Shown here: positions 56,763-64,000 of the stretch, piece by piece
Layout of the letters: every line of letters begins with the position of its first letter
Position numbering within the stretch: position 1 is the stretch's first letter
Assembly: GCA_049523135.1 (NCBI GenBank)
Contig: JBEKNE010000001.1
Location: 82,095 to 146,094, forward strand
Direction of reading: 5' to 3'
DNA from: Candidatus Microgenomates bacterium
GTDB lineage: Bacteria; Patescibacteriota; Microgenomatia; UBA8517
DNA length: 64,000 nt
Notes under the pieces: model-generated
Databases searched by the model: none
What the model was told of the DNA's origin: nothing
What the model saw: the letters and a program-made list of their open reading frames with translations, nothing else
Position numbers and translations under genes: made by a program

Positions 56763-56837
56763 TGGAGGCCGGAGCGGGAATCGAACCCGCGCATAGAAGT
56801 TTTGCAGACTCCCGCGTTTCCACTTCGCCATCCGGCC
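56763..56837 (-). tRNA. tRNA-Cys (anticodon GCA), CCA encoded
   Basis: The rc reads GGCCGGA-TG-GCGAAGTGGAAACGC-GGGAGT-CTGCAAA-ACTTC-TATGC-GCGGGTTCGATTCCCGC-TCCGGCC-T-CCA. Confidence 0.8.
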
Positions 56838-56882
56838 ACGCGCTTGTATTGTAGCATATTCTTTTGTTACACTCGGTCCGAG

Positions 56883-57776
56883 ATGAAGACTTTTAGGACG
56901 ATTTTAATTACATTTATATCTTTTTGCATTTTGGTGATCACAGTATTTTTTCTGATCGGTTATTTTAGACCAAAACCCGGAGGAATTAAGATTGATACAA
57001 CTACCGCTGCCAGTGTTTATATAAACGGAGCATTGGTTGGTTCAACTCCTTATAACGAGTTTTATCCTGCCGGGGAGATAACCTTGAAGCTGGTGCCCGA
57101 AGGAAATGAAAACAATTTAGTACCTTTTGAAATAAAAGTTAATATAACCTCCGGAATTCAGACGGTTGTTGAAAGGAGTTTTGGGAGTACAGAGGATGCT
57201 TCCTCCGATTATGTTATTTCGTTTGATAAAAACGGCTCCGAAAATTCTGGTTTGGTCGTTGTTTCAAGACCTGAAAATGCTGAAGTTGAAATAGACGGAG
57301 TCTCAAGGGGTTTTGCTCCGTATGAAGATTCAACTGTTAATCCCGGATTGCATGCGGTTACCGTCAAAGCTCCGGGCTATGCCGATGCCTCAATGACTGT
57401 AAGTACAGTGATTGGGTATAGACTTACATTTTTTGCGAAACTTGAGAAGGGGATTAGTAGTGAAGAAACACAAACAATGCCGGTACAAACTTCTCCACCA
57501 GATCAAGATAAACCTTATGTTCAAATACAAAATACACCAACAGGCTATCTGAGAGTTAGAAGTAAACCCGGTTTGGCGGGAGTGGAAATAGCTCAAGTTT
57601 CTCCCGGTGATAAATTTCCCTATCTTGATGAAGATGTGGCAACCGGATGGTTGGAGATTCAATATCAGGGGCCTACAGTCGCTTCAGCCTCAGGAGTAGT
57701 AGGTTGGGTTTCGGGAGATTTTGCCAAAAAAGTTATGCTCTCAAGTACCTCTACGCCGAGTGCCGGCTTAAAATAA
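56883..57776 (+). CDS. membrane-anchored protein with PEGA-like and bacterial SH3 (SH3b) domains
   Basis: The ORF track starts at TTG 56802 inside tRNA-Cys. ATG 56883 (MKTFRTILITF..., TM) is preferred. PEGA-like region ...VYINGALVGSTPY... and ...VEIDGVSRGFAPYE.... The C-terminus ...GYLRVRSKPGLAGVEIAQVSPGDKFPY...GWVSGDF is SH3b-like. Confidence 0.5.
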   Translation: MKTFRTILITFISFCILVITVFFLIGYFRPKPGGIKIDTTTAASVYINGALVGSTPYNEFYPAGEITLKLVPEGNENNLVPFEIKVNITSGIQTVVERSFGSTEDASSDYVISFDKNGSENSGLVVVSRPENAEVEIDGVSRGFAPYEDSTVNPGLHAVTVKAPGYADASMTVSTVIGYRLTFFAKLEKGISSEETQTMPVQTSPPDQDKPYVQIQNTPTGYLRVRSKPGLAGVEIAQVSPGDKFPYLDEDVATGWLEIQYQGPTVASASGVVGWVSGDFAKKVMLSSTSTPSAGLK

Positions 57777-57778
57777 GC

Positions 57779-58753
57779 CTAGAAAGTGGAAATGCCGCTG
57801 TAGAGTACCCAATAGATTAATATTGCCCAAATAAATATAGCCGCAATCAACATTTCATCGGACAAAAGCAGCTTTTCAGGTGTTTCGCTTTTACCCTCGA
57901 AAATAAGTGATTCGTATCTCATTATTCCAAAAATCGTTACGGGAATTGTAAGCATTAGAAGTTTGTCAATTGTGGTTGTTTTGGAAAACTCCGCCAAGAC
58001 CATCCAGAATGGGGTTGATGCTTTCGGACTTTCGAAGAATGTAAAAAGAGCCCAACTCATCCATGAAGCGTTGCCAAACATGGTTACATAGGAATTCAGA
58101 AGCTCCTTTTTATATGTACCCAGACTTTTTCTGGTTAGGTTTTCCGTGTTTTCAACAAGATTAAGTTCTGCTCTTCTTTTGCCGGAAGCAAGAAACAGAG
58201 CCACTGAAATTACACAAAGCAGGAACCAAACGGAAAGATGGGCGTCGATTACAAAAGCGCCTGCATACACCCGAAGAACGAATCCAGTTGCTATTATTAT
58301 TATGTCGATTATGGCTACGTTTTTGAGGCCAAGACTATAGAAAAACTGCAGGACTAAGTAGATTAAGATAATTGTAAGGAAAAGTGAATTTAGGTTTCCA
58401 ATAAAAGTCAAAATAATTGATGCCAGAATAAGAACTACCGCCTCAATTAGTGCCAAATGGGTTGGTAAATCTCCGGAAGCTATCGGCCTGAACTTCTTTT
58501 TGGGGTGCATCTTGTCGGAGTCAACATCAAAAATATCGTTAATGATATAGGTGGCGGATGTGATTAAACAGAAAGCGATAAATGCCCAACAAGCTTTAGT
58601 AAAAGTGTTGGTATTAAATAGAGATCCGGATAAGAAGATTGCCGCGAAAATTGCCAAATTCTTGATCCAATGAATAGGCCGCATCGCTCTTATTACGGCG
58701 GAAGCTAGTGTGTATTTTGTTTGACCTGTTTTTGTGGTTGGTGAGTCAGCCAT
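57779..58753 (-). CDS. UbiA-family prenyltransferase (decaprenyl-phosphate phosphoribosyltransferase-like)
   Basis: Asp-rich motif ...YIINDIFDVDSDKMHPKKKFRPIASG.... About 8 TM helices. Confidence 0.65.
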   Translation of the reverse strand: MADSPTTKTGQTKYTLASAVIRAMRPIHWIKNLAIFAAIFLSGSLFNTNTFTKACWAFIAFCLITSATYIINDIFDVDSDKMHPKKKFRPIASGDLPTHLALIEAVVLILASIILTFIGNLNSLFLTIILIYLVLQFFYSLGLKNVAIIDIIIIATGFVLRVYAGAFVIDAHLSVWFLLCVISVALFLASGKRRAELNLVENTENLTRKSLGTYKKELLNSYVTMFGNASWMSWALFTFFESPKASTPFWMVLAEFSKTTTIDKLLMLTIPVTIFGIMRYESLIFEGKSETPEKLLLSDEMLIAAIFIWAILIYWVLYSGISTF

Positions 58754-59796
58754 AATATTAATCCGCCTAAAAAGGTGGCTATACCTACCATTGTATAGAC
58801 CTTGCTGGCAGTATTCAAATTAAGGGCCAAAAATCCAAGTAATGCAGTTACTCCCCAATAAAAGTAAGCAACTTGTCTTTTGGTTAAGCCTGCATCCAAA
58901 AGTCTATGATGCAGATGACCTCTGTCGCCCCAAACGGGGGATTTGTGATTCATAATGCGCCTGACTATCGTGTAGCCCGTGTCGATAAGCGGAACTCCCA
59001 AAACAACCATTAAAGCCCCAACCTTGGTTGTGGAAAGAATAGAAAGTACCCCAAGAAGATATCCGGCTAAAGTACTTCCGCCGTATCCCGGCATAATTTT
59101 TTGAGGGAAAATATGCCAAGGAAGAAATCCGAGATATGCCCCCGCAGTTATTGCCGCCAGGATTATTACGGGCCACTGGGTAATATCGGCAGAATATCGC
59201 AGGGAAAGAAACGCTATGGTCAGAGCCGCAATTACAGTAACTCCGCTCAGTTGCCCGTCAACTCCCTTTGCCCCCATATTAACTATGTTCATGAGAAATG
59301 TGATCCAGATAAGGGCAAAAATATCCGAAATAATCCAAATACTGTGTGTTGCTCCAAGAAGTGTAAATGTAATTTGTGGTTGATTAAGATTTATTGTTCC
59401 CCCAAGAGGGTTTGAAACAAAAGCTATGCCGATTCCCGCCGCAATCGGAGCCGCTGCGGCAACGAAGTCTAAGATCAACCGTAAATAAGGATTAAGATTG
59501 TATTTATCGTCAAGGGTCCCCATGACTACAAGTATTGCTGCCCCTATCAGAATCCCAATTATGTGTTTATCTATCGGTAAAAATAGAAAACTGCAAATAA
59601 GAAGCGCAAAAAAAATCGGGATTCCTCCTCCTCTTGGAACCGGATAAGTATGAATTACTTTCGGTTGTTTGTTTTTGGCGGGATCGTCAATTATTCCGAT
59701 TCTCTCGGCAAGTTTGATAACAATGGGAGTGGCCAAAAATGCTAAGACTGCTGAAGTGAGCCATGGAAGTAAAAATAGGTTTCGTAAACTTTCCAT
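58705..59796 (-). CDS. glycosyltransferase family 4 polyprenyl-phosphate sugar-phosphate transferase (MraY/WecA-like)
   Basis: Polytopic. ...LIGILIGAAILVVMGTLDDKYNLNPYLRL... and ...VNMGAKGVDGQLSGVT... are MraY/WecA family features. Confidence 0.55.
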   Translation of the reverse strand: MESLRNLFLLPWLTSAVLAFLATPIVIKLAERIGIIDDPAKNKQPKVIHTYPVPRGGGIPIFFALLICSFLFLPIDKHIIGILIGAAILVVMGTLDDKYNLNPYLRLILDFVAAAAPIAAGIGIAFVSNPLGGTINLNQPQITFTLLGATHSIWIISDIFALIWITFLMNIVNMGAKGVDGQLSGVTVIAALTIAFLSLRYSADITQWPVIILAAITAGAYLGFLPWHIFPQKIMPGYGGSTLAGYLLGVLSILSTTKVGALMVVLGVPLIDTGYTIVRRIMNHKSPVWGDRGHLHHRLLDAGLTKRQVAYFYWGVTALLGFLALNLNTASKVYTMVGIATFLGGLILWLTHQPQKQVKQNTH

Positions 59797-59797
59797 T

Positions 59798-60133
59798 TTA
59801 GAAAAATCCTACCAGCAAGATTATTTTAATTACGGTAATTGTTGTTACGCAGGATATTACCAAAGTTGAAATGGCAATTATTTTTTTTAGAAAATCATCC
59901 TTTACCCACAAATTTAACGGTATATTTATTAGTGTGATGGCTAGGGAGGCAATGGGAGCGATGATAAGCCATAACCTTGGTACAAGTTGTCCTTCCCCTA
60001 CAGGTCTGCCGTAGAGTAGTGGGACTACCGGAGGTAAAAAACTCTGCAGCACTAGGATTAACGCAATAGTCAAAATGTCTAAAATTACAGTTGCCAAAAA
60101 GTAATTATTGGAAAATATTCGTTTCAGAAACAT
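59798..60133 (-). CDS. small hypothetical membrane protein (3 TM)
   Basis: 111-aa hydrophobic ORF between two glycosyltransferase genes. Confidence 0.35.
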   Translation of the reverse strand: MFLKRIFSNNYFLATVILDILTIALILVLQSFLPPVVPLLYGRPVGEGQLVPRLWLIIAPIASLAITLINIPLNLWVKDDFLKKIIAISTLVISCVTTITVIKIILLVGFF

Positions 60134-60159
60134 AAGAGCTGGACTATATTGTACGATAC

Positions 60160-61668
60160 TTACTTGGCCGGAGCAAAATCAACTCTAGAGTAGATATCTG
60201 CATTGTCAATCCGGTTGATCAAAATATATTTTTGTTTTAATAACATTGTAAGTTCGGTATAAGGTTGATCATCGGTTAAAATTATGAATTTTGGAGGATT
60301 TGCGGCGATATTTTTTGCTTCCTGAGCCTTGGAGGAATAATCAGTTACATGGTAATCAACAACATATTTTATTGGAGGCAAGCGTTTTGAAAGAGCATAA
60401 ACTGCGGCCGAATCGGGGTCCCACATAAAAACCCTGTCTGCTGTCAGGCTTGATTGTGTCAGAAATTCAGCAATTGCATAGTTTCTGTTGGTGGTTCCCG
60501 AAAATCCGTTAAAATATTGTTCTTTTGTCTCTTGTCCGGTCGCAAACTTTATAAAATTTAGGTAATAGGATGTTGTCGGATAAAACCAAAATTTGTAGTA
60601 AAAAGGAACAAAAAATACCAAGGCCAACGGAAGTACCGTTAAGGATTGTTCAAGGCTATTTTCCGTAAAGAAAGAAGCTAAAAGTAGTGAAATCGGAGCA
60701 ACTACCTGAATGAGATAGTGCGGATAAGGCCTCTCCGAAAGGGTTATGGCAAAAAGTGCGAAGAGTGTCCAAAGAGAAAGCAAAATAAATCTACCAGAAA
60801 GCTTTTTCCTGAATAGGAAGAGAGTTCCTGAACCTAAAATTACAACGGCTGCCCGTATAAGAAGTGGGGCATTTCTGACCAAGAACGGTTTTTGAACGTC
60901 TCCCGGTCTAAAGCTGCTTAGATAGCCTATGTTTTGCAGAAAAGCGGCACTAATATATTGAGGTAGGGCCCCTTTAAAGAAATACCAAATAAATGTTAAA
61001 AGAATAGGGATGGCAAACCCCACTGCAAGAACCATTGTATTTTTGAATATATTTTTCCAATCCTTGAACCCTCCGACAATCAACCAGTAAAAAACAATGA
61101 TAGGCGCATCAAAGGCAGCGGGAATTTTATAAAGAGTACCAAGGCCAAAAAGAATTCCGGCAAAAAAGATTTCTTTTAATTTCAGCTCTTTCTTAAGAAG
61201 TATTAAAAGTCCGGCAATTGTAAAAACAATCATAAATAGTTCCGAATTTACAGTTAGACCTTCCAAGAGAGGAAGAGTGGTCAGAAGTCCGAAGAGAACC
61301 GTTGCGAGCTTTTGGGCGTTTTGATTTTTCTCAAAAAGCATTTTTGAGAGTTTGTAGAAAAAGAAAATAGTTACAAGATTCCAAAAAGCCAAAATCACCT
61401 TAAACCAGAAAAGATTTCCGGCAACTGCAGCAGTTATATAAAGGAGTGGGGGCTTGTTATCATAAATATTTTTATAGAGAGTAAGCCCTTGGCGGATTCC
61501 TTGGCCAAGCGTCAGATAAACCATTTCATCTCCATAGTAGTAAGGTTCAAAAAAAGAGGGGATTCTCAAAATAAAAACAGTTCCCAAAAGCGTAACTAGC
61601 CAATTTGGCAATTCTGGTAAATGAAGGATACTGCCGATTTTGTGGAGTTTATTCCAAAAAGCTTTCAT
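60160..61668 (-). CDS. GT-C fold membrane glycosyltransferase (ArnT/PMT family 39/83-like)
   Basis: At least 10 TM helices, with early-loop ...YYGDEMVY... and ...NKPPLLYI... I chose ATG 61668 (MKAFWNKL...) rather than the ORF-track start 61728, which would overlap the divergent DGR-target promoter. Confidence 0.5.
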   Translation of the reverse strand: MKAFWNKLHKIGSILHLPELPNWLVTLLGTVFILRIPSFFEPYYYGDEMVYLTLGQGIRQGLTLYKNIYDNKPPLLYITAAVAGNLFWFKVILAFWNLVTIFFFYKLSKMLFEKNQNAQKLATVLFGLLTTLPLLEGLTVNSELFMIVFTIAGLLILLKKELKLKEIFFAGILFGLGTLYKIPAAFDAPIIVFYWLIVGGFKDWKNIFKNTMVLAVGFAIPILLTFIWYFFKGALPQYISAAFLQNIGYLSSFRPGDVQKPFLVRNAPLLIRAAVVILGSGTLFLFRKKLSGRFILLSLWTLFALFAITLSERPYPHYLIQVVAPISLLLASFFTENSLEQSLTVLPLALVFFVPFYYKFWFYPTTSYYLNFIKFATGQETKEQYFNGFSGTTNRNYAIAEFLTQSSLTADRVFMWDPDSAAVYALSKRLPPIKYVVDYHVTDYSSKAQEAKNIAANPPKFIILTDDQPYTELTMLLKQKYILINRIDNADIYSRVDFAPAK

Positions 61669-61687
61669 TATTTTTAAGTGTACAAAC

Positions 61688-61716
61688 TTGACACATATTC
61701 CGCAAGTGCCTATACT
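61688..61716 (+). promoter_or_regulatory. sigma70-like promoter of DGR target gene
   Basis: TTGACA (61688-61693), a 17-nt spacer, then TATACT (61711-61716). AGGAGG SD at 61755-61760, 5 nt before ATG 61766. Confidence 0.5.
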
Positions 61717-61765
61717 ATGGGTCTGCACATTTACATTCGTGCAAATCTATTTTAGGAGGTGTGCG

Positions 61766-62509
61766 ATGGTATCGCATGCTACTGGTCGTGGCTCGGGACA
61801 GCCGACCCCTGCCCAGCTGAAGGAGTTGTTTGCTCAGATTGAGTCTGGAAAGGTAAACAAAGGTCGAATGCAAGAATTCCTGCGTGGTTCAACTCAGACT
61901 GTTACAGTCAAAGTTGCCCAGGAAGTCATGGGGAAGAAGAACTTTTTTGGTCCTGAAGAGTGGACAAAGTTCTTTGGTAAGAAATTTCAACTTACCACTA
62001 TCCCCGAAATCCCACGGAGTCAGAGCGAGCTTGAGAACCCTGGAATCAATCAAGAGCATTTTCTCTTCCTTGGCGTTGACAACTTGGATGGTAAACCTCT
62101 CAATCTGCCAGCCTGGCACAAGGTTTACTCTGGTGAGAATCACCCCAAGTTCTATTGGGATTGGTATCTCACCCATAAGTTTGCTCAAGTTTCCTGTGAG
62201 CTTCGTTGGTACCTAATGCCTGTTGGCGTTGTGGAAGGCTCCCTGAGTCTTGCCTACGATCGTCAAGTTGCTTTGCTTCCTGATAAATACGAGGTTCCGA
62301 CCGCACTCGCTCGCGTCACCGCGAATATCCTTTACTATCTTCTGAACAAGAAGTATTTGGATACAGGTTCCTGGTCACGTACCAGCGACAAGTCTGATGG
62401 CGGTTACCGTGTCAACGTTCAGGGTAGCTCTGGCAGTGGTGTCGGTGTCGACAGCTGGAGCGATGATGCTAACGGCGATGTTGGCTTGTCCGCCTCTCGG
62501 AAATTCTAA
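61766..62509 (+). CDS. DGR target (variable) protein, VR at C-terminus
   Basis: Starts MVSHATGRGSGQPTPAQLKELF... The C-terminus reads ...GGYRVNVQGSSGSGVGVDSWSDDANGDVGLSASRKF, encoded by the VR. The ORF-track upstream TTG start at 61640 is rejected. Confidence 0.7.
   Translation: MVSHATGRGSGQPTPAQLKELFAQIESGKVNKGRMQEFLRGSTQTVTVKVAQEVMGKKNFFGPEEWTKFFGKKFQLTTIPEIPRSQSELENPGINQEHFLFLGVDNLDGKPLNLPAWHKVYSGENHPKFYWDWYLTHKFAQVSCELRWYLMPVGVVEGSLSLAYDRQVALLPDKYEVPTALARVTANILYYLLNKKYLDTGSWSRTSDKSDGGYRVNVQGSSGSGVGVDSWSDDANGDVGLSASRKF
62399..62503 (+). repeat. DGR variable repeat (VR)
   Basis: A 104-nt match to the TR at 62903-63006. All 12 mismatches fall at TR adenine positions (A->G x11, A->T x1). 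The 3' 40 nt are identical (IMH-like ...gttggcttgtccgcctctcgg). Confidence 0.8.
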
Positions 62510-62580
62510 GATTGATTCTTGGGTTCTTGAGAAATTGCTTCTCTTGACTCCCTTGAGTCTTTGCTTTTCCGAGTTTTTAC

Positions 62581-62650
62581 CCCCGCATTTTTGCGTTTTA
62601 CCAGATTTTCTGGATGCAAAAGTGCGGGGTGTTTTTTTGGGAAAATCTGT
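62581..62650 (+). terminator. long hairpin plus T-run downstream of VR (DGR-associated stem-loop / terminator)
   Basis: CCCCGCATTTTTGC ... GCAAAAGTGCGGGG is a 14-bp stem with one G-U pair. It has a nested ccagaTTTTctgg hairpin and is followed by tgttttttt. Confidence 0.5.
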
Positions 62651-62902
62651 GTAAAATAAGTTTCCTTGTTAATGCAGGTTAGGTTACGGCCTAACTTCAC
62701 AAGTGCGGTTTTTTTAAAACGCCGGAATATTCCTCTCTATGAGAGGGAATAGTGTGCGTCTAAAAAGCTTAAAGAATTTCTTGTCTACTTTTGGTGGAGG
62801 AGGGGAAGTACCTCACGATCTCCCAAATAAAATTCAAGAGGGAAAGTATATATAGTGAAAAACTTAACCTCCGGTGAGCATTAGATGAAGGTAGACAAAA
62901 GA

Positions 62903-63006
62903 AGCGGTAACCGTGTCAACGTTCAGGGTAACTCTGACAATGGTATCAATGTCAACAACTGGAACGATGATGCTAACGACGATGTTGGCTTGTCCGCCTC
63001 TCGGAA
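62903..63006 (+). repeat. DGR template repeat (TR)
   Basis: The in-frame reading is Asn-codon rich (aac/aat): GNRVNVQGNSDNGINVNNWNDDANDD. It lies between the target gene and avd. Confidence 0.8.
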
Positions 63007-63007
63007 T

Positions 63008-63355
63008 TTACTTTAAGCTTTTTAACCAACCGCCCAACATTCTTCCTATCTCATCAATTTTTTCTTGAAGTGTGATATATTTTTTATTGTCAATTGCCTT
63101 TACATCTTTTGAAAGTCTAATAAACATCCTCATCATATTCAGTTTTTTACTTGCTTCCTCCAAGATGCCAGCCTTTTCATTTTTAGGAAGACCTATTGCT
63201 ACCAGAATTTCCTCCAAAACTTCCAATGTTGTGTTTTCCACTTTTTGCCAAACGGCGTAGCGGTCACTTTTTGGAATAGAACCCCGGAGACTATAGATCT
63301 CCTTGTAAAGCTCATAAGTTTGGTTAAAAATCGGCGTGTCGAAGGAGTTATTCAT
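63008..63355 (-). CDS. avd: DGR accessory variability determinant (Avd), four-helix-bundle protein
   Basis: 115-aa basic helical protein divergent from the RT, with start codons 5 nt apart. Its size and position are typical of Avd. Confidence 0.6.
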   Translation of the reverse strand: MNNSFDTPIFNQTYELYKEIYSLRGSIPKSDRYAVWQKVENTTLEVLEEILVAIGLPKNEKAGILEEASKKLNMMRMFIRLSKDVKAIDNKKYITLQEKIDEIGRMLGGWLKSLK

Positions 63356-63359
63356 AATA

Positions 63360-64000
63360 ATGAAAATTTATACAGACGTTTTTGAAAATATAATTTCTCC
63401 GGAAAATCTATTCAGTTCCTGGGCAAACTTCAAGCATGATAAACGAAAGAGACCGGATGTACAAGAGTTTGAGATTAGACTTGAAGAAAATATTTTCAAT
63501 CTTCACAGAGAATTAAAAACGGGAATTTACAGGCATGGGCCTTATAAACCTTTTTACATTCACGATCCAAAACAACGTTTGATTCACAAAGCGAGAGTTC
63601 GCGATAGAGTTGTCCACCATGCAATTTACTCAGTCTTAAATCCGATTTTTGAACCGACTTTTATAGCAAATTCATTTTCTTGCCGTATTGGTAAAGGAAC
63701 ACATAAGGGAGTTGAAATTTTAGGAAAAATATTAAGAAAAGTTAGCAAAAATAATACGATAAATTGCTTTGCTTTAAAGGGTGATGTAAAGAAATTCTTT
63801 GATAGTATAGACCATGAAATCTTGCTAGATATTCTAGAAAAAAAGATAAAGGACGAAAATACAATACGGCTTCTTAAAGAAATTATTAATAGTTATTCTG
63901 TGTCTGAAGGGTGTGGAGTACCAATAGGCAACTTAACTTCACAGATTTTTGCAAATATTTACCTGAACGAACTTGATCAATTTATTAAACATGAACTTAG
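63360..64000 (+). CDS. DGR reverse transcriptase (partial; runs off window end)
   Basis: MKIYTDVFENIISPENLFSSWANFKHDKRKRPDV...GPYKPFYIHDPKQRLIHKARVRDRVVHHAIY...CRIGKGTHKG...GVPIGNLTSQIFANIYLNELDQF carries RT motifs 1-4. Confidence 0.85.
   Translation, partial: MKIYTDVFENIISPENLFSSWANFKHDKRKRPDVQEFEIRLEENIFNLHRELKTGIYRHGPYKPFYIHDPKQRLIHKARVRDRVVHHAIYSVLNPIFEPTFIANSFSCRIGKGTHKGVEILGKILRKVSKNNTINCFALKGDVKKFFDSIDHEILLDILEKKIKDENTIRLLKEIINSYSVSEGCGVPIGNLTSQIFANIYLNELDQFIKHEL

Follow-up and report, generated by a model that had tools for sequence, protein, structure and literature searches.

An apparently active chromosomal diversity-generating retroelement with a candidate structured RNA 5′ of its template repeat in a Candidate Phyla Radiation bacterium

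Near one end of the stretch of bacterial DNA that we analysed (64,000 nt, hereafter the window), the 3′ end of a gene is repeated a short distance downstream, beside a reverse transcriptase (RT) gene, which raises the questions of whether the locus is a diversity-generating retroelement (DGR), whether it is still at work, and how its template RNA is organized. Alignment of the copy within the gene (VR) with the downstream copy (TR) gave an ungapped direct repeat of 103 nt at an offset of 504 (Table 1). It contains 11 mismatches, each opposite a TR adenine (10 A>G and 1 A>T), so that 11 of the 27 TR adenines and none of the 76 other TR positions are changed in VR (P = 6.5e-8 for all 11 falling on A by chance), in keeping with the adenine-only divergence claimed in the original prediction. 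In the frame of the target gene the changed adenines occupy codon positions 1 or 2 only. A twelfth mismatch counted in that prediction (62399/62903, TR-A to G) lies at the 5′ edge of the repeat, and we kept it out of the firm count because homology has already been lost there (62395–62398 all differ). At the 3′ limit (62503/63007, A vs. T), 7 nt ahead of the target stop codon, an invariant stretch does precede the point of divergence, but it is 27 nt long and not the ∼40 nt originally proposed, as 62461–62502 is interrupted by a mismatch at 62475. The invariant block, the VR/TR divergence that follows it and an inverted repeat present after VR only make up an IMH-type arrangement, in which the 27-nt block putatively acts as the IMH and its non-identical counterpart at the end of TR as the IMH*. 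No further VR-like copies of TR were found in the 64-kb window, leaving a single target, and a 43-aa ORF in public gene calls (62885–63016) is TR read in the target's frame.

Table 1. Features of the locus in window coordinates (+, forward strand; -, reverse strand).
Feature	Position	Strand	Remarks
Putative sigma-70-like promoter of target, TTGACA-17-TATACT	61688–61716	+	11 of 12 consensus matches
Shine-Dalgarno AGGAGG of target	61754–61759	+	6 nt ahead of ATG at 61766; read directly
Target (variable protein) gene, 247 aa	61766–62509	+	N-terminal ∼45-aa helical module, then predicted divergent C-type-lectin-fold domain; last ∼35 residues are VR
VR	62400–62502	+	Differs from TR at 11 TR adenines and nowhere else; 62459, 62460 and 62471 vary in second haplotype
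Invariant 3′ block of VR, IMH-like, CGATGTTGGCTTGTCCGCCTCTCGGAA	62476–62502	+	27 nt; VR and TR diverge from 62503/63007
Conserved imperfect hairpin/inverted repeat	62497–62572	+	Begins within last 7 nt of VR; conserved across relatives
Intrinsic terminator of target	62580–62638	+	Hairpin 62580–62629, then T-run 62632–62638; conserved in relatives
Candidate -10 element for TR-containing RNA, TGTGTAnAAT	62648–62657	+	Near-invariant in 7 lineages; putative promoter role
Structured non-coding RNA domain 5′ of TR, ∼240 nt	62665–62903	+	Covariation-supported
"Splint" strand	62761–62792	+	Pairs with both TR ends
TR	62904–63006	+	27 adenines, mainly in AAC, AAT, GAC and GAT codons; identical in both haplotypes
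3′ arm of long-range duplex	63003–63024	+	Last 4 nt of TR and 18 nt of flank; overlaps avd stop and last codons, other strand
avd, 115 aa	63008–63355	-	Strand opposite TR and RT; PF22296 bAvd, NF033474 DivGenRetAVD
Shine-Dalgarno AAGGAG of RT	63342–63347	+	Inside avd coding sequence
DGR reverse transcriptase	63360–64000	+	First 213 of 326 codons; window end cuts gene

The same 103-nt repeat, and nothing more, would be accounted for by an ordinary partial gene duplication that acquired point mutations and happens to lie beside an RT of the retron or group II type. That all 11 differences fall at TR adenines and in codon positions 1 or 2 argues against such an origin, and so do the neighboring genes. 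RTs of the DGR clade have IGxxxSQ where group II RTs have QGxxxSP, and DGRs are carried by ANMV-1, VHML, crAss-like phages and Bordetella phages. The RT of this locus, complete at 326 aa in identical contigs (L003), contains the motifs IGNLTSQ and YADD and matches the RTs of these phages at 35–44% identity. Its best solved relative is PDB 8ub7 (E = 1.8e-50; the top group II RT gave 2.4e-22), a 328-aa entry named "Reverse transcriptase" that, from its length and motifs, we take to be probably the Bordetella phage DGR enzyme. Its scores were far under the cut-offs of the group II model (TIGR04416, 105.8 vs. 300) and the retron RT model (32.3 vs. 235), and Rfam returned neither a group II nor a retron match. 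By motif and nearest relatives the RT would be placed in the DGR clade, as first proposed, and not with retron or group II enzymes. The inverted avd foreseen beside TR is likewise present, scoring 71.7 bits against PF22296 (cut-off 40) and 82.2 bits against the DGR-specific NCBIfam equivalog NF033474 (cut-off 80); a PDB sequence search with it gave no match. Its orientation is kept in all relatives, and its start codon stands head to head with that of RT, 4 nt apart, a spacing of 3–4 nt being found in five of seven lineages and probably also in L017. Finally, six related cassettes were located, 63–69% identical in RT and in the same order target-TR-(avd)-RT, each with its own adenine-only VR/TR differences, in these cases to a mixture of T, C and G. 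With the pattern recurring independently in six relatives, we regard a chance duplication as scarcely credible.

We thus conclude that the locus is very probably a chromosomal DGR, laid out as target-VR, TR, inverted avd and RT, of a bacterium of the Candidate Phyla Radiation (CPR), placed by GroEL in the Microgenomates/Woesebacteria. It is a further example of an already known DGR type and, as a DGR, ordinary. The order TR, reverse-strand avd, RT, seen in the window and its relatives, is exactly architecture B3 of the "CPR set" of Wu et al. 2018, and the locus resembles these chromosomal CPR/DPANN elements (DGR clade 2 of Roux et al.) also in its host group and in a target that lacks a recognizable domain, signal peptide or membrane segment. 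The literature already describes CPR bacteria as rich in DGRs that are laid out in this way and whose unannotated targets have no signal peptide. What differs is that a structured RNA 5′ of TR, an adenine-poor target and a shared N-terminal module go unmentioned in the texts consulted. The locus therefore adds one more well-delimited, apparently active DGR from this radiation, and its by-products, namely the RNA model, the adenine signature and the N-terminal module, are worth more than the DGR itself.

Activity is addressed by a second haplotype (L001/L002). Over 4077 positions it and the window show five differences, of which three lie in VR (Fisher P = 1.5e-4; Table 1), all three opposite adenines of an identical TR. 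Variation of VR among samples, which the original prediction had proposed to look for at just these sites, was found exactly there in assembled contigs. Because three of the five differences fall at TR-adenine sites of VR and TR is unchanged, homing would have occurred after the two populations split, and the DGR has apparently been active recently, as judged from these sequences. One VR haplotype is carried by 13 contigs from several samples and the other by two, which suggests that diversification may be slow or episodic. The same counts would fit a fossil, in which an intact cassette no longer diversifies and the VR differences are old, fixed homing events. Many target homologues (including L026/27, L030/31 and L033–L036) have no adjacent avd and RT, so loss of the machinery is common in the target family, and the predominance of A>G (10 of 11 changes, a narrower spectrum than in the relatives), for which selection or a small number of homing events may be responsible, could represent a selected state that has become frozen. 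However, neither RT nor avd is truncated, and their catalytic motifs are present; conservation extends to the leader RNA, the inverted repeat and the IMH region; and a fossil would not readily yield an identical TR together with differences concentrated, over 4 kb, at VR sites opposite its adenines. We consider a fossil unlikely and a recently active element the better reading.

The protein that would be diversified matched no curated family in Pfam or NCBIfam at E ≤0.1, and by sequence it does not belong to FGE-sulfatase, DUF1566 or any other curated VR family. Thus, of the two routes by which the original prediction had hoped to classify it, family searches failed and structure prediction succeeded: an AlphaFold model (pLDDT 88) has the C-type-lectin fold, and its fold matches include three solved DGR variable proteins, TvpA (2y3c), TaqVP (5vf4) and Mtd (1yu0). 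In the secondary structure of the model VR covers the last three beta strands. As modelled, the target is a divergent C-type-lectin-fold protein carrying VR, which bears out the prediction in the literature that CPR DGR targets hide divergent folds of this kind and assigns the fold to a target family of ∼60 members previously without annotation. The expected lack of an obvious signal peptide was confirmed, in that neither a signal peptide nor a membrane segment was found in the target (highest 19-residue Kyte-Doolittle mean, 0.89), and the protein is small and apparently cytoplasmic. Its start methionine is the same as in its homologues. An exhaustive HMMER search showed the N-terminal module to be common to 124 unrelated protein clusters; a word-indexed search with the 46-aa module gave nothing, a limit of that method. 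The shared module may hint at the cellular destination of these signal-peptide-less proteins.

The putative promoter and the Shine-Dalgarno sequence that had been ascribed to the target are both present, as are the hairpin and T-run said to follow VR (Table 1). The terminator hairpin comprises about 16 pairs, two of them G-U, and an additional inner 5-bp stem, and folding of 62470–62650 gave z = −6.4. In the imperfect hairpin that begins in the end of VR, the basal stem pairs TCGGAAA (62497–62503) with TTTCCGA (62566–62572); 23 pairs are formed in 11 sequences, three of them with compensatory changes. This hairpin is also present in homologues without avd and RT.

Between the terminator and TR, a consensus scan detected no sigma-70 promoter and did not flag the TGTGTAnAAT element, about 8 nt downstream of which a structured domain begins. 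Hairpins are formed by 62673–62699, 62728–62751, 62794–62824 and 62833–62878, and the domain as a whole has 80 pairs that are 97.3% paired across seven sequences. Thirteen pairs show compensatory changes, as compared with 4.9 ± 1.7 in shuffles (0 of 500 with as many) and 2–7 in slid controls, and the abundance of G-U pairs identifies the RNA strand as plus. The splint contributes two long-range helices: its 5′ half (62761–62780) pairs with 63003–63024, that is, the TR 3′ end and its flank, and its 3′ half (62782–62792) pairs with 62887–62897, just upstream of TR. The former pairing contains a 14-nt perfect inverted repeat (I5), reaches −16 to −23 kcal/mol in seven of seven lineages, a value equalled by no more than 2 of 300 shuffles, and appears also in the single-sequence minimum-energy fold; the latter lies no more than 6 nt from the start of VR/TR homology in every lineage. 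The leader strand that pairs with the TR 3′ end is complementary also to the 3′ end of VR, GGAAATTCT. A helix between 62707–62714 and 62762–62769 (alignment columns 68–75/124–131), an alternative or an artefact, was set aside, since no covariation was seen in it and it competes with the long-range duplex, for which the evidence is better. The leader matched no Rfam family; at a relaxed threshold 62500–63400 gave only spurious miRNA-type matches on the terminator, and when viral contigs were scanned for the leader pattern, the two matches were chance ones in unrelated sequence.

The best known element with which to compare this arrangement is that of Bordetella phage BPP-1 (mtd-avd-TR-brt). Both transfer sequence from TR adenine-specifically, both have VR as the 3′-terminal part of a gene for a C-type-lectin-fold target, and in both an inverted repeat comes after an invariant IMH-like stretch; they also have in common an Avd accessory protein, a closely related RT with IGxxxSQ (judged by 8ub7, taken to be the phage enzyme), and one RNA strand that pairs both with the TR 3′ region and with a segment just upstream of TR; a duplex of the "cPRT Stop" type between sequences flanking TR is found in seven lineages. 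In contrast to BPP-1, the element here is chromosomal and not phage-borne, its avd is inverted and lies between TR and RT, its target is a soluble protein and not a tail fibre, and beyond the IMH it has a long and imperfect AT-rich inverted repeat where BPP-1 has a short GC-rich hairpin. It also lacks a non-coding spacer downstream of TR, and the structured RNA is upstream. The template RNA thus appears to be organized unlike that of the textbook phage element.

From this we tentatively propose, as one possibility suggested by the sequences, that in this B3 lineage the functional RNA outside the template is a circular permutation of that in the Bordetella phage, with the splint ∼125 nt 5′ of the template, priming from an upstream nucleotide near 62780, and a retron-like topology. 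The splint may take the role of the phage's downstream spacer, placing the template 3′ end for priming and ending the cDNA at the template 5′ end, a reading based on topology and seven related sequences. Retron msr-msd RNA is alike in topology only: there too the sequence immediately 3′ of the template is paired to a strand from the 5′ side, and with such pairing by the leader strand the template 3′ end comes to lie beside an upstream nucleotide that could prime. Unlike retrons, the locus has an RT of another type and no msr/msd family match, and its cDNA is presumed to be integrated, not kept as msDNA.

Instead, the leader might have no part in the reverse-transcription machinery and serve as a leader with a regulatory function, as a promoter region, or as the 5′ UTR of the small TR-spanning ORF, whose ATG at 62885 is invariant. 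The elements for priming and for Avd binding would then be found 3′ of TR, within antisense avd, as they are 3′ of TR in the Bordetella phage. In the phage the known functional RNA beyond TR does lie downstream, save a short upstream segment, and a published survey predicts Avd-binding stem-loops downstream of TR in 207 of 278 DGRs. Four-fold sites are also somewhat better conserved in avd (0.65) than in the target (0.60) or RT (0.51), although the rise is modest; a structured spacer hidden in antisense avd was considered and rejected, as structure there is weak. The 250 nt downstream of TR have 30 predicted pairs, two compensatory, and −13.8 kcal/mol, vs. −60.8 kcal/mol for the leader; avd begins 0–16 nt past TR, which leaves no room for a non-coding spacer; and the splint is paired to the two ends of TR in the order and polarity of the phage spacer. 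A leader of this separate kind has an appreciable chance of being correct, although we would not call it probable.

In the mechanism that we propose for the element, a plus-strand RNA starting near 62664 would carry the ∼240-nt structured leader and TR and would probably continue across antisense avd as far as the RT gene. RT with Avd would copy TR into cDNA, misincorporating opposite adenines, and the cDNA would replace VR, a step in which the 27-nt block and the inverted repeat beside it would act as guides. Recoding would affect about 16 of the last 35 codons of VR in the target, and binding could be altered as a result; what we infer here are the limits of the transcript, its priming, homing and a ligand. 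The RNA model would apply to the whole TR-(avd)-RT class and bears on the extent to which the phage's way of priming and stopping is retained once the spacer is relocated.

The target gene also stands out in composition. Its GC content (0.49) exceeds that of the window (0.40), avd (0.36) and RT (0.31), so that its enrichment over its surroundings, initially judged by eye, holds. It is adenine-poor at synonymous sites along its entire length, an avoidance not seen in divergent homologues without a DGR. Occasional copying of the target mRNA itself by RT could produce such depletion; the 5′-to-3′ gradient expected if mRNA-derived cDNA were 3′-biased was not significant (chi-square P = 0.36). Adenine avoidance in the target might report long-term exposure to a mutagenic RT.

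The last 2.3 kb of the window were read directly, aligned by script, and run through a repeat finder, and the features identified there are collected in the table. As had been predicted, the 3′ end of the target gene (VR) reappears downstream as the TR, at an offset of 504 nt and without gaps over 103 nt. The two copies differ at 11 positions, every one a TR adenine, and none of the 76 non-adenine TR positions differs; were 11 mismatches placed at random, the probability of all landing on the 27 TR adenines would be 6.5e-8. All 11 affect the first or second position of a codon in the target frame. The original prediction was thus correct about the adenine-only spectrum, but the twelfth mismatch that it counted (62399/62903, also A→G) lies past the end of the homology, and the ∼40 invariant nucleotides it described at the VR 3′ end shrink to an unbroken block of only 27 nt. 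No second VR was found within the window.

Features of the retroelement and its target gene (window coordinates)
Feature	Position	Strand	Basis or remark
Promoter-like site	61688–61716		11/12 match
Shine-Dalgarno AGGAGG	ahead of target ATG		direct reading
Target gene	61766–62509	plus	247 aa
N-terminal module	61766–61900		target residues 1–45
VR	62400–62502		
Invariant 3′ block of VR (IMH)	62476–62502		role by analogy
Conserved imperfect hairpin	62497–62572		starts in last 7 nt of VR
Terminator	62580–62638		long hairpin and T-run
TGTGTAnAAT	62648–62657		directly ahead of first leader helix
Leader RNA	62665–62903	plus	5′ of TR
ORF across TR	62885–63016		43 aa; public gene calls
TR	62904–63006		
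avd	63008–63355	minus	115 aa; Pfam bAvd match and above NCBIfam equivalog cut-off for DGR Avd
RT ORF	from 63360, interrupted by window end		326 aa in contigs identical to window

Both the inverted avd beside the TR and the truncated RT behind it were as predicted. The full-length RT contains IGNLTSQ and YADD, and among solved structures its closest match is 8ub7 (a reverse transcriptase of 328 aa, nine entries; E = 1.8e-50), which, from its length and motifs, we take to be the Bordetella phage RT, the codes not being printed in the preprint. The best group II RT (2.4e-22) and retron-type chains (about 2e-20) matched far less well, and a group II or retron assignment was rejected because both NCBIfam models score far under their cut-offs. 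Matches in the phage collection were to RTs of ANMV-1, VHML, crAss-like phages, and Bordetella phages, which are known DGR carriers. The start codons of avd and RT stand head to head (63355–63360), 3–4 nt apart, an arrangement seen directly in five of the seven lineages (the window cassette and six related cassettes) and inferred for L017; the ribosome binding site and promoter of each gene must therefore lie within the coding sequence of the other, and a transcript running from TR to RT would be antisense to the avd mRNA.

Variation among related contigs also fell where the original prediction had proposed to look for it. Contigs encoding P0001, a 99% identical protein whose two residue differences both lie within the VR, show 5 differences from the window over 4077 aligned DNA positions. 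Three of them (62459, 62460, and 62471) fall within the VR at positions where the TR has adenine (Fisher P = 1.5e-4 for enrichment in the VR), and the TR is the same in both haplotypes, a pattern to be expected if homing took place after the populations had diverged. However, only two VR haplotypes occur over 15 contigs. Interpreting the locus as a DGR was right, and the element is a complete DGR of the CPR type that has probably been active recently. A→G makes up 10 of the 11 VR changes in the window copy, the other being A→T; the second haplotype contributes one A→C change, and in relatives the replacements are a mix of T, C, and G.

The six related cassettes (L015, L017, L022, L025, L028/29, and L032; RTs 63–69% identical) lie in differing chromosomal neighbourhoods, and in all of them the target is followed in order by the TR, reverse-strand avd, and RT. 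The VR/TR pairs are particular to each cassette and contain 12–18 mismatches, which are adenine-specific barring single exceptions at repeat edges. Because this order is architecture B3 (Wu et al. 2018), and because targets that usually lack membrane segments or known domains, with new C-type-lectin variants predicted among them, have already been described for CPR DGRs (Roux et al., preprint), the element belongs to a known kind of DGR and its novelty as such is low. As for the host, the window GroEL is 86–90% identical to organism-named proteins, all from Microgenomates, Woesebacteria, and Patescibacteria genomes.

The window (56802–64000) and L009 (3436–10313) have in common a PEGA-domain protein, UbiA, glycosyltransferase 4, a small membrane protein, and a large glycosyltransferase, which flank the cassette on different sides, and other relatives adjoin SecA, RNase J, or glycosyltransferases, so the cassette has moved within and between genomes. 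L009, whose gene neighbourhood is of the same CPR type, is publicly labelled “uncultured Gammaproteobacteria bacterium”, a label that is probably wrong. In contigs of the Woesebacteria GW2011_GWA2_40_7b type (L009 4414–5166; L018 and L019 5001–5747), which may stem from one dataset, the target ends in ...SASRNLL, the TR 3′ flank, followed directly by avd, and these contigs have no VR flank, terminator, leader RNA, or TR; this fusion reflects either a genuine VR/TR recombination that inactivated the element or the merging of the two repeat copies by the assembler. Many target homologues lack an adjacent avd or RT (L026/L027, L030/L031, and L033–L036). The close ones, L026 and L030, retain a VR-like C-terminus, IMH, inverted repeat, and terminator, and their likeness to the cassette ends soon after the terminator, as though a deletion had removed TR-avd-RT. 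L034 and L035 are located in the ribosomal protein L11/L1-NusG cluster, where the neighbouring gene (246–258 aa, no Pfam domain) may be a paralogue.

We consider three leads worth following: the RNA organisation, an adenine deficit in the target gene, and its N-terminal module. The ∼270 nt from target terminator to TR are 80–84% identical, above the identity of the proteins. For the seven lineages, RNAalifold predicted 80 pairs with 97.3% of cells paired, and 13 pairs showed compensatory changes, as compared to 4.9 ± 1.7 in shuffles (0/500 as many) and 2–7 with slid partners. The strand is fixed as plus by the abundance of G-U pairs, and no Rfam family matched the leader. The conserved TGTGTAnAAT ahead of it may be a promoter. 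The ORF annotated across the TR (MKVDKRSGNRVNVQGNSDNG...) is the TR translated in the target frame; its ATG is the same in all seven lineages, yet sits in the 3′ strand of a conserved helix.

The TR is bracketed by a 14-nt perfect inverted repeat (62761–62774 with 63011–63024), and the extended duplex (62761–62780 with 63003–63024) has −16 to −23 kcal/mol in all seven lineages, a value matched by no more than 2 of 300 shuffles, and base changes within it preserve pairing. Past one unpaired nucleotide, the upstream strand of this duplex enters a helix with 62887–62897 that in every lineage stops 6 nt short of the TR, and the single-sequence minimum-energy fold has both helices stacked with the TR inserted between them. 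In the Bordetella phage RNA, the spacer that follows the TR pairs twice in close succession, first with the TR 3′ region, giving the template:primer duplex, and, two nucleotides on, with the stretch immediately ahead of the TR (“cPRT Stop”). The window strand pairs in the same order and polarity, but it lies upstream of the template rather than in a downstream spacer. Because avd starts 0–16 nt past the TR, leaving no space for such a spacer, and because conserved structure is sparse in antisense avd (30 pairs, 2 compensatory, −13.8 kcal/mol), we propose by analogy that the leader takes the functional place of the phage spacer in this DGR lineage. The hairpin that begins in the VR is the counterpart of the post-IMH inverted repeat in phage and Legionella elements, and the hairpin with T-run predicted after the VR corresponds to the terminator.

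The coding strand of the target is adenine-poor along its entire length. At sites with a synonymous A option, its A fraction is 0.21 (VR excluded) as compared to 0.31–0.52 in all 42 other long window ORFs, and A-ending Lys/Glu/Gln codons make up 36%, the corresponding shares being 70% for host genes and 71% for GroEL (Fisher P = 9e-6). The predicted higher GC of the target was borne out by measurement; because T is not depleted, however, the deficit is not simply higher GC. It is common to DGR-linked relatives (L015, L017, L025, L028, and L032) and to the two close DGR-less homologues L026 and L030; in the divergent DGR-less homologues L033–L035, four-fold-site adenine is near host levels, and the Lys/Glu/Gln measure in DGR-less homologues is mixed (L033, 0.28; L036, 0.40). 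A 5′-to-3′ gradient along the target was not significant. The deficit could stem from spill-over of adenine mutagenesis, from selection against scaffold adenines, or from gene-specific codon bias.

The target protein matched no Pfam or NCBIfam family, and none of its ∼60 metagenomic homologues, one of them from a Woesebacteria genome, is annotated. Their alignment shows a conserved scaffold and last ∼35 residues that vary precisely at codons with TR adenines; the AlphaFold2 model built on it is confident (pLDDT 88.3). The expected promoter-like site and Shine-Dalgarno sequence were located, and, in keeping with the predicted lack of an obvious signal peptide, no hydrophobic segment was found in the target. 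The N-terminal module (SHAxGxxSxxPTPAQLKELFAQIESGxVxKxRxQEFLRG), which could have a docking or trafficking role, begins at least 124 cluster representatives (60–306 aa) with unrelated C-terminal parts, including one from a MAG labelled Woesearchaeota; one protein has two copies. An RNA polymerase alpha C-terminal domain is present in 8 of 96 scanned module proteins, nearly all others being without a Pfam domain. In the target homologues P0021 and P0028, a different helical N-terminus replaces the module.
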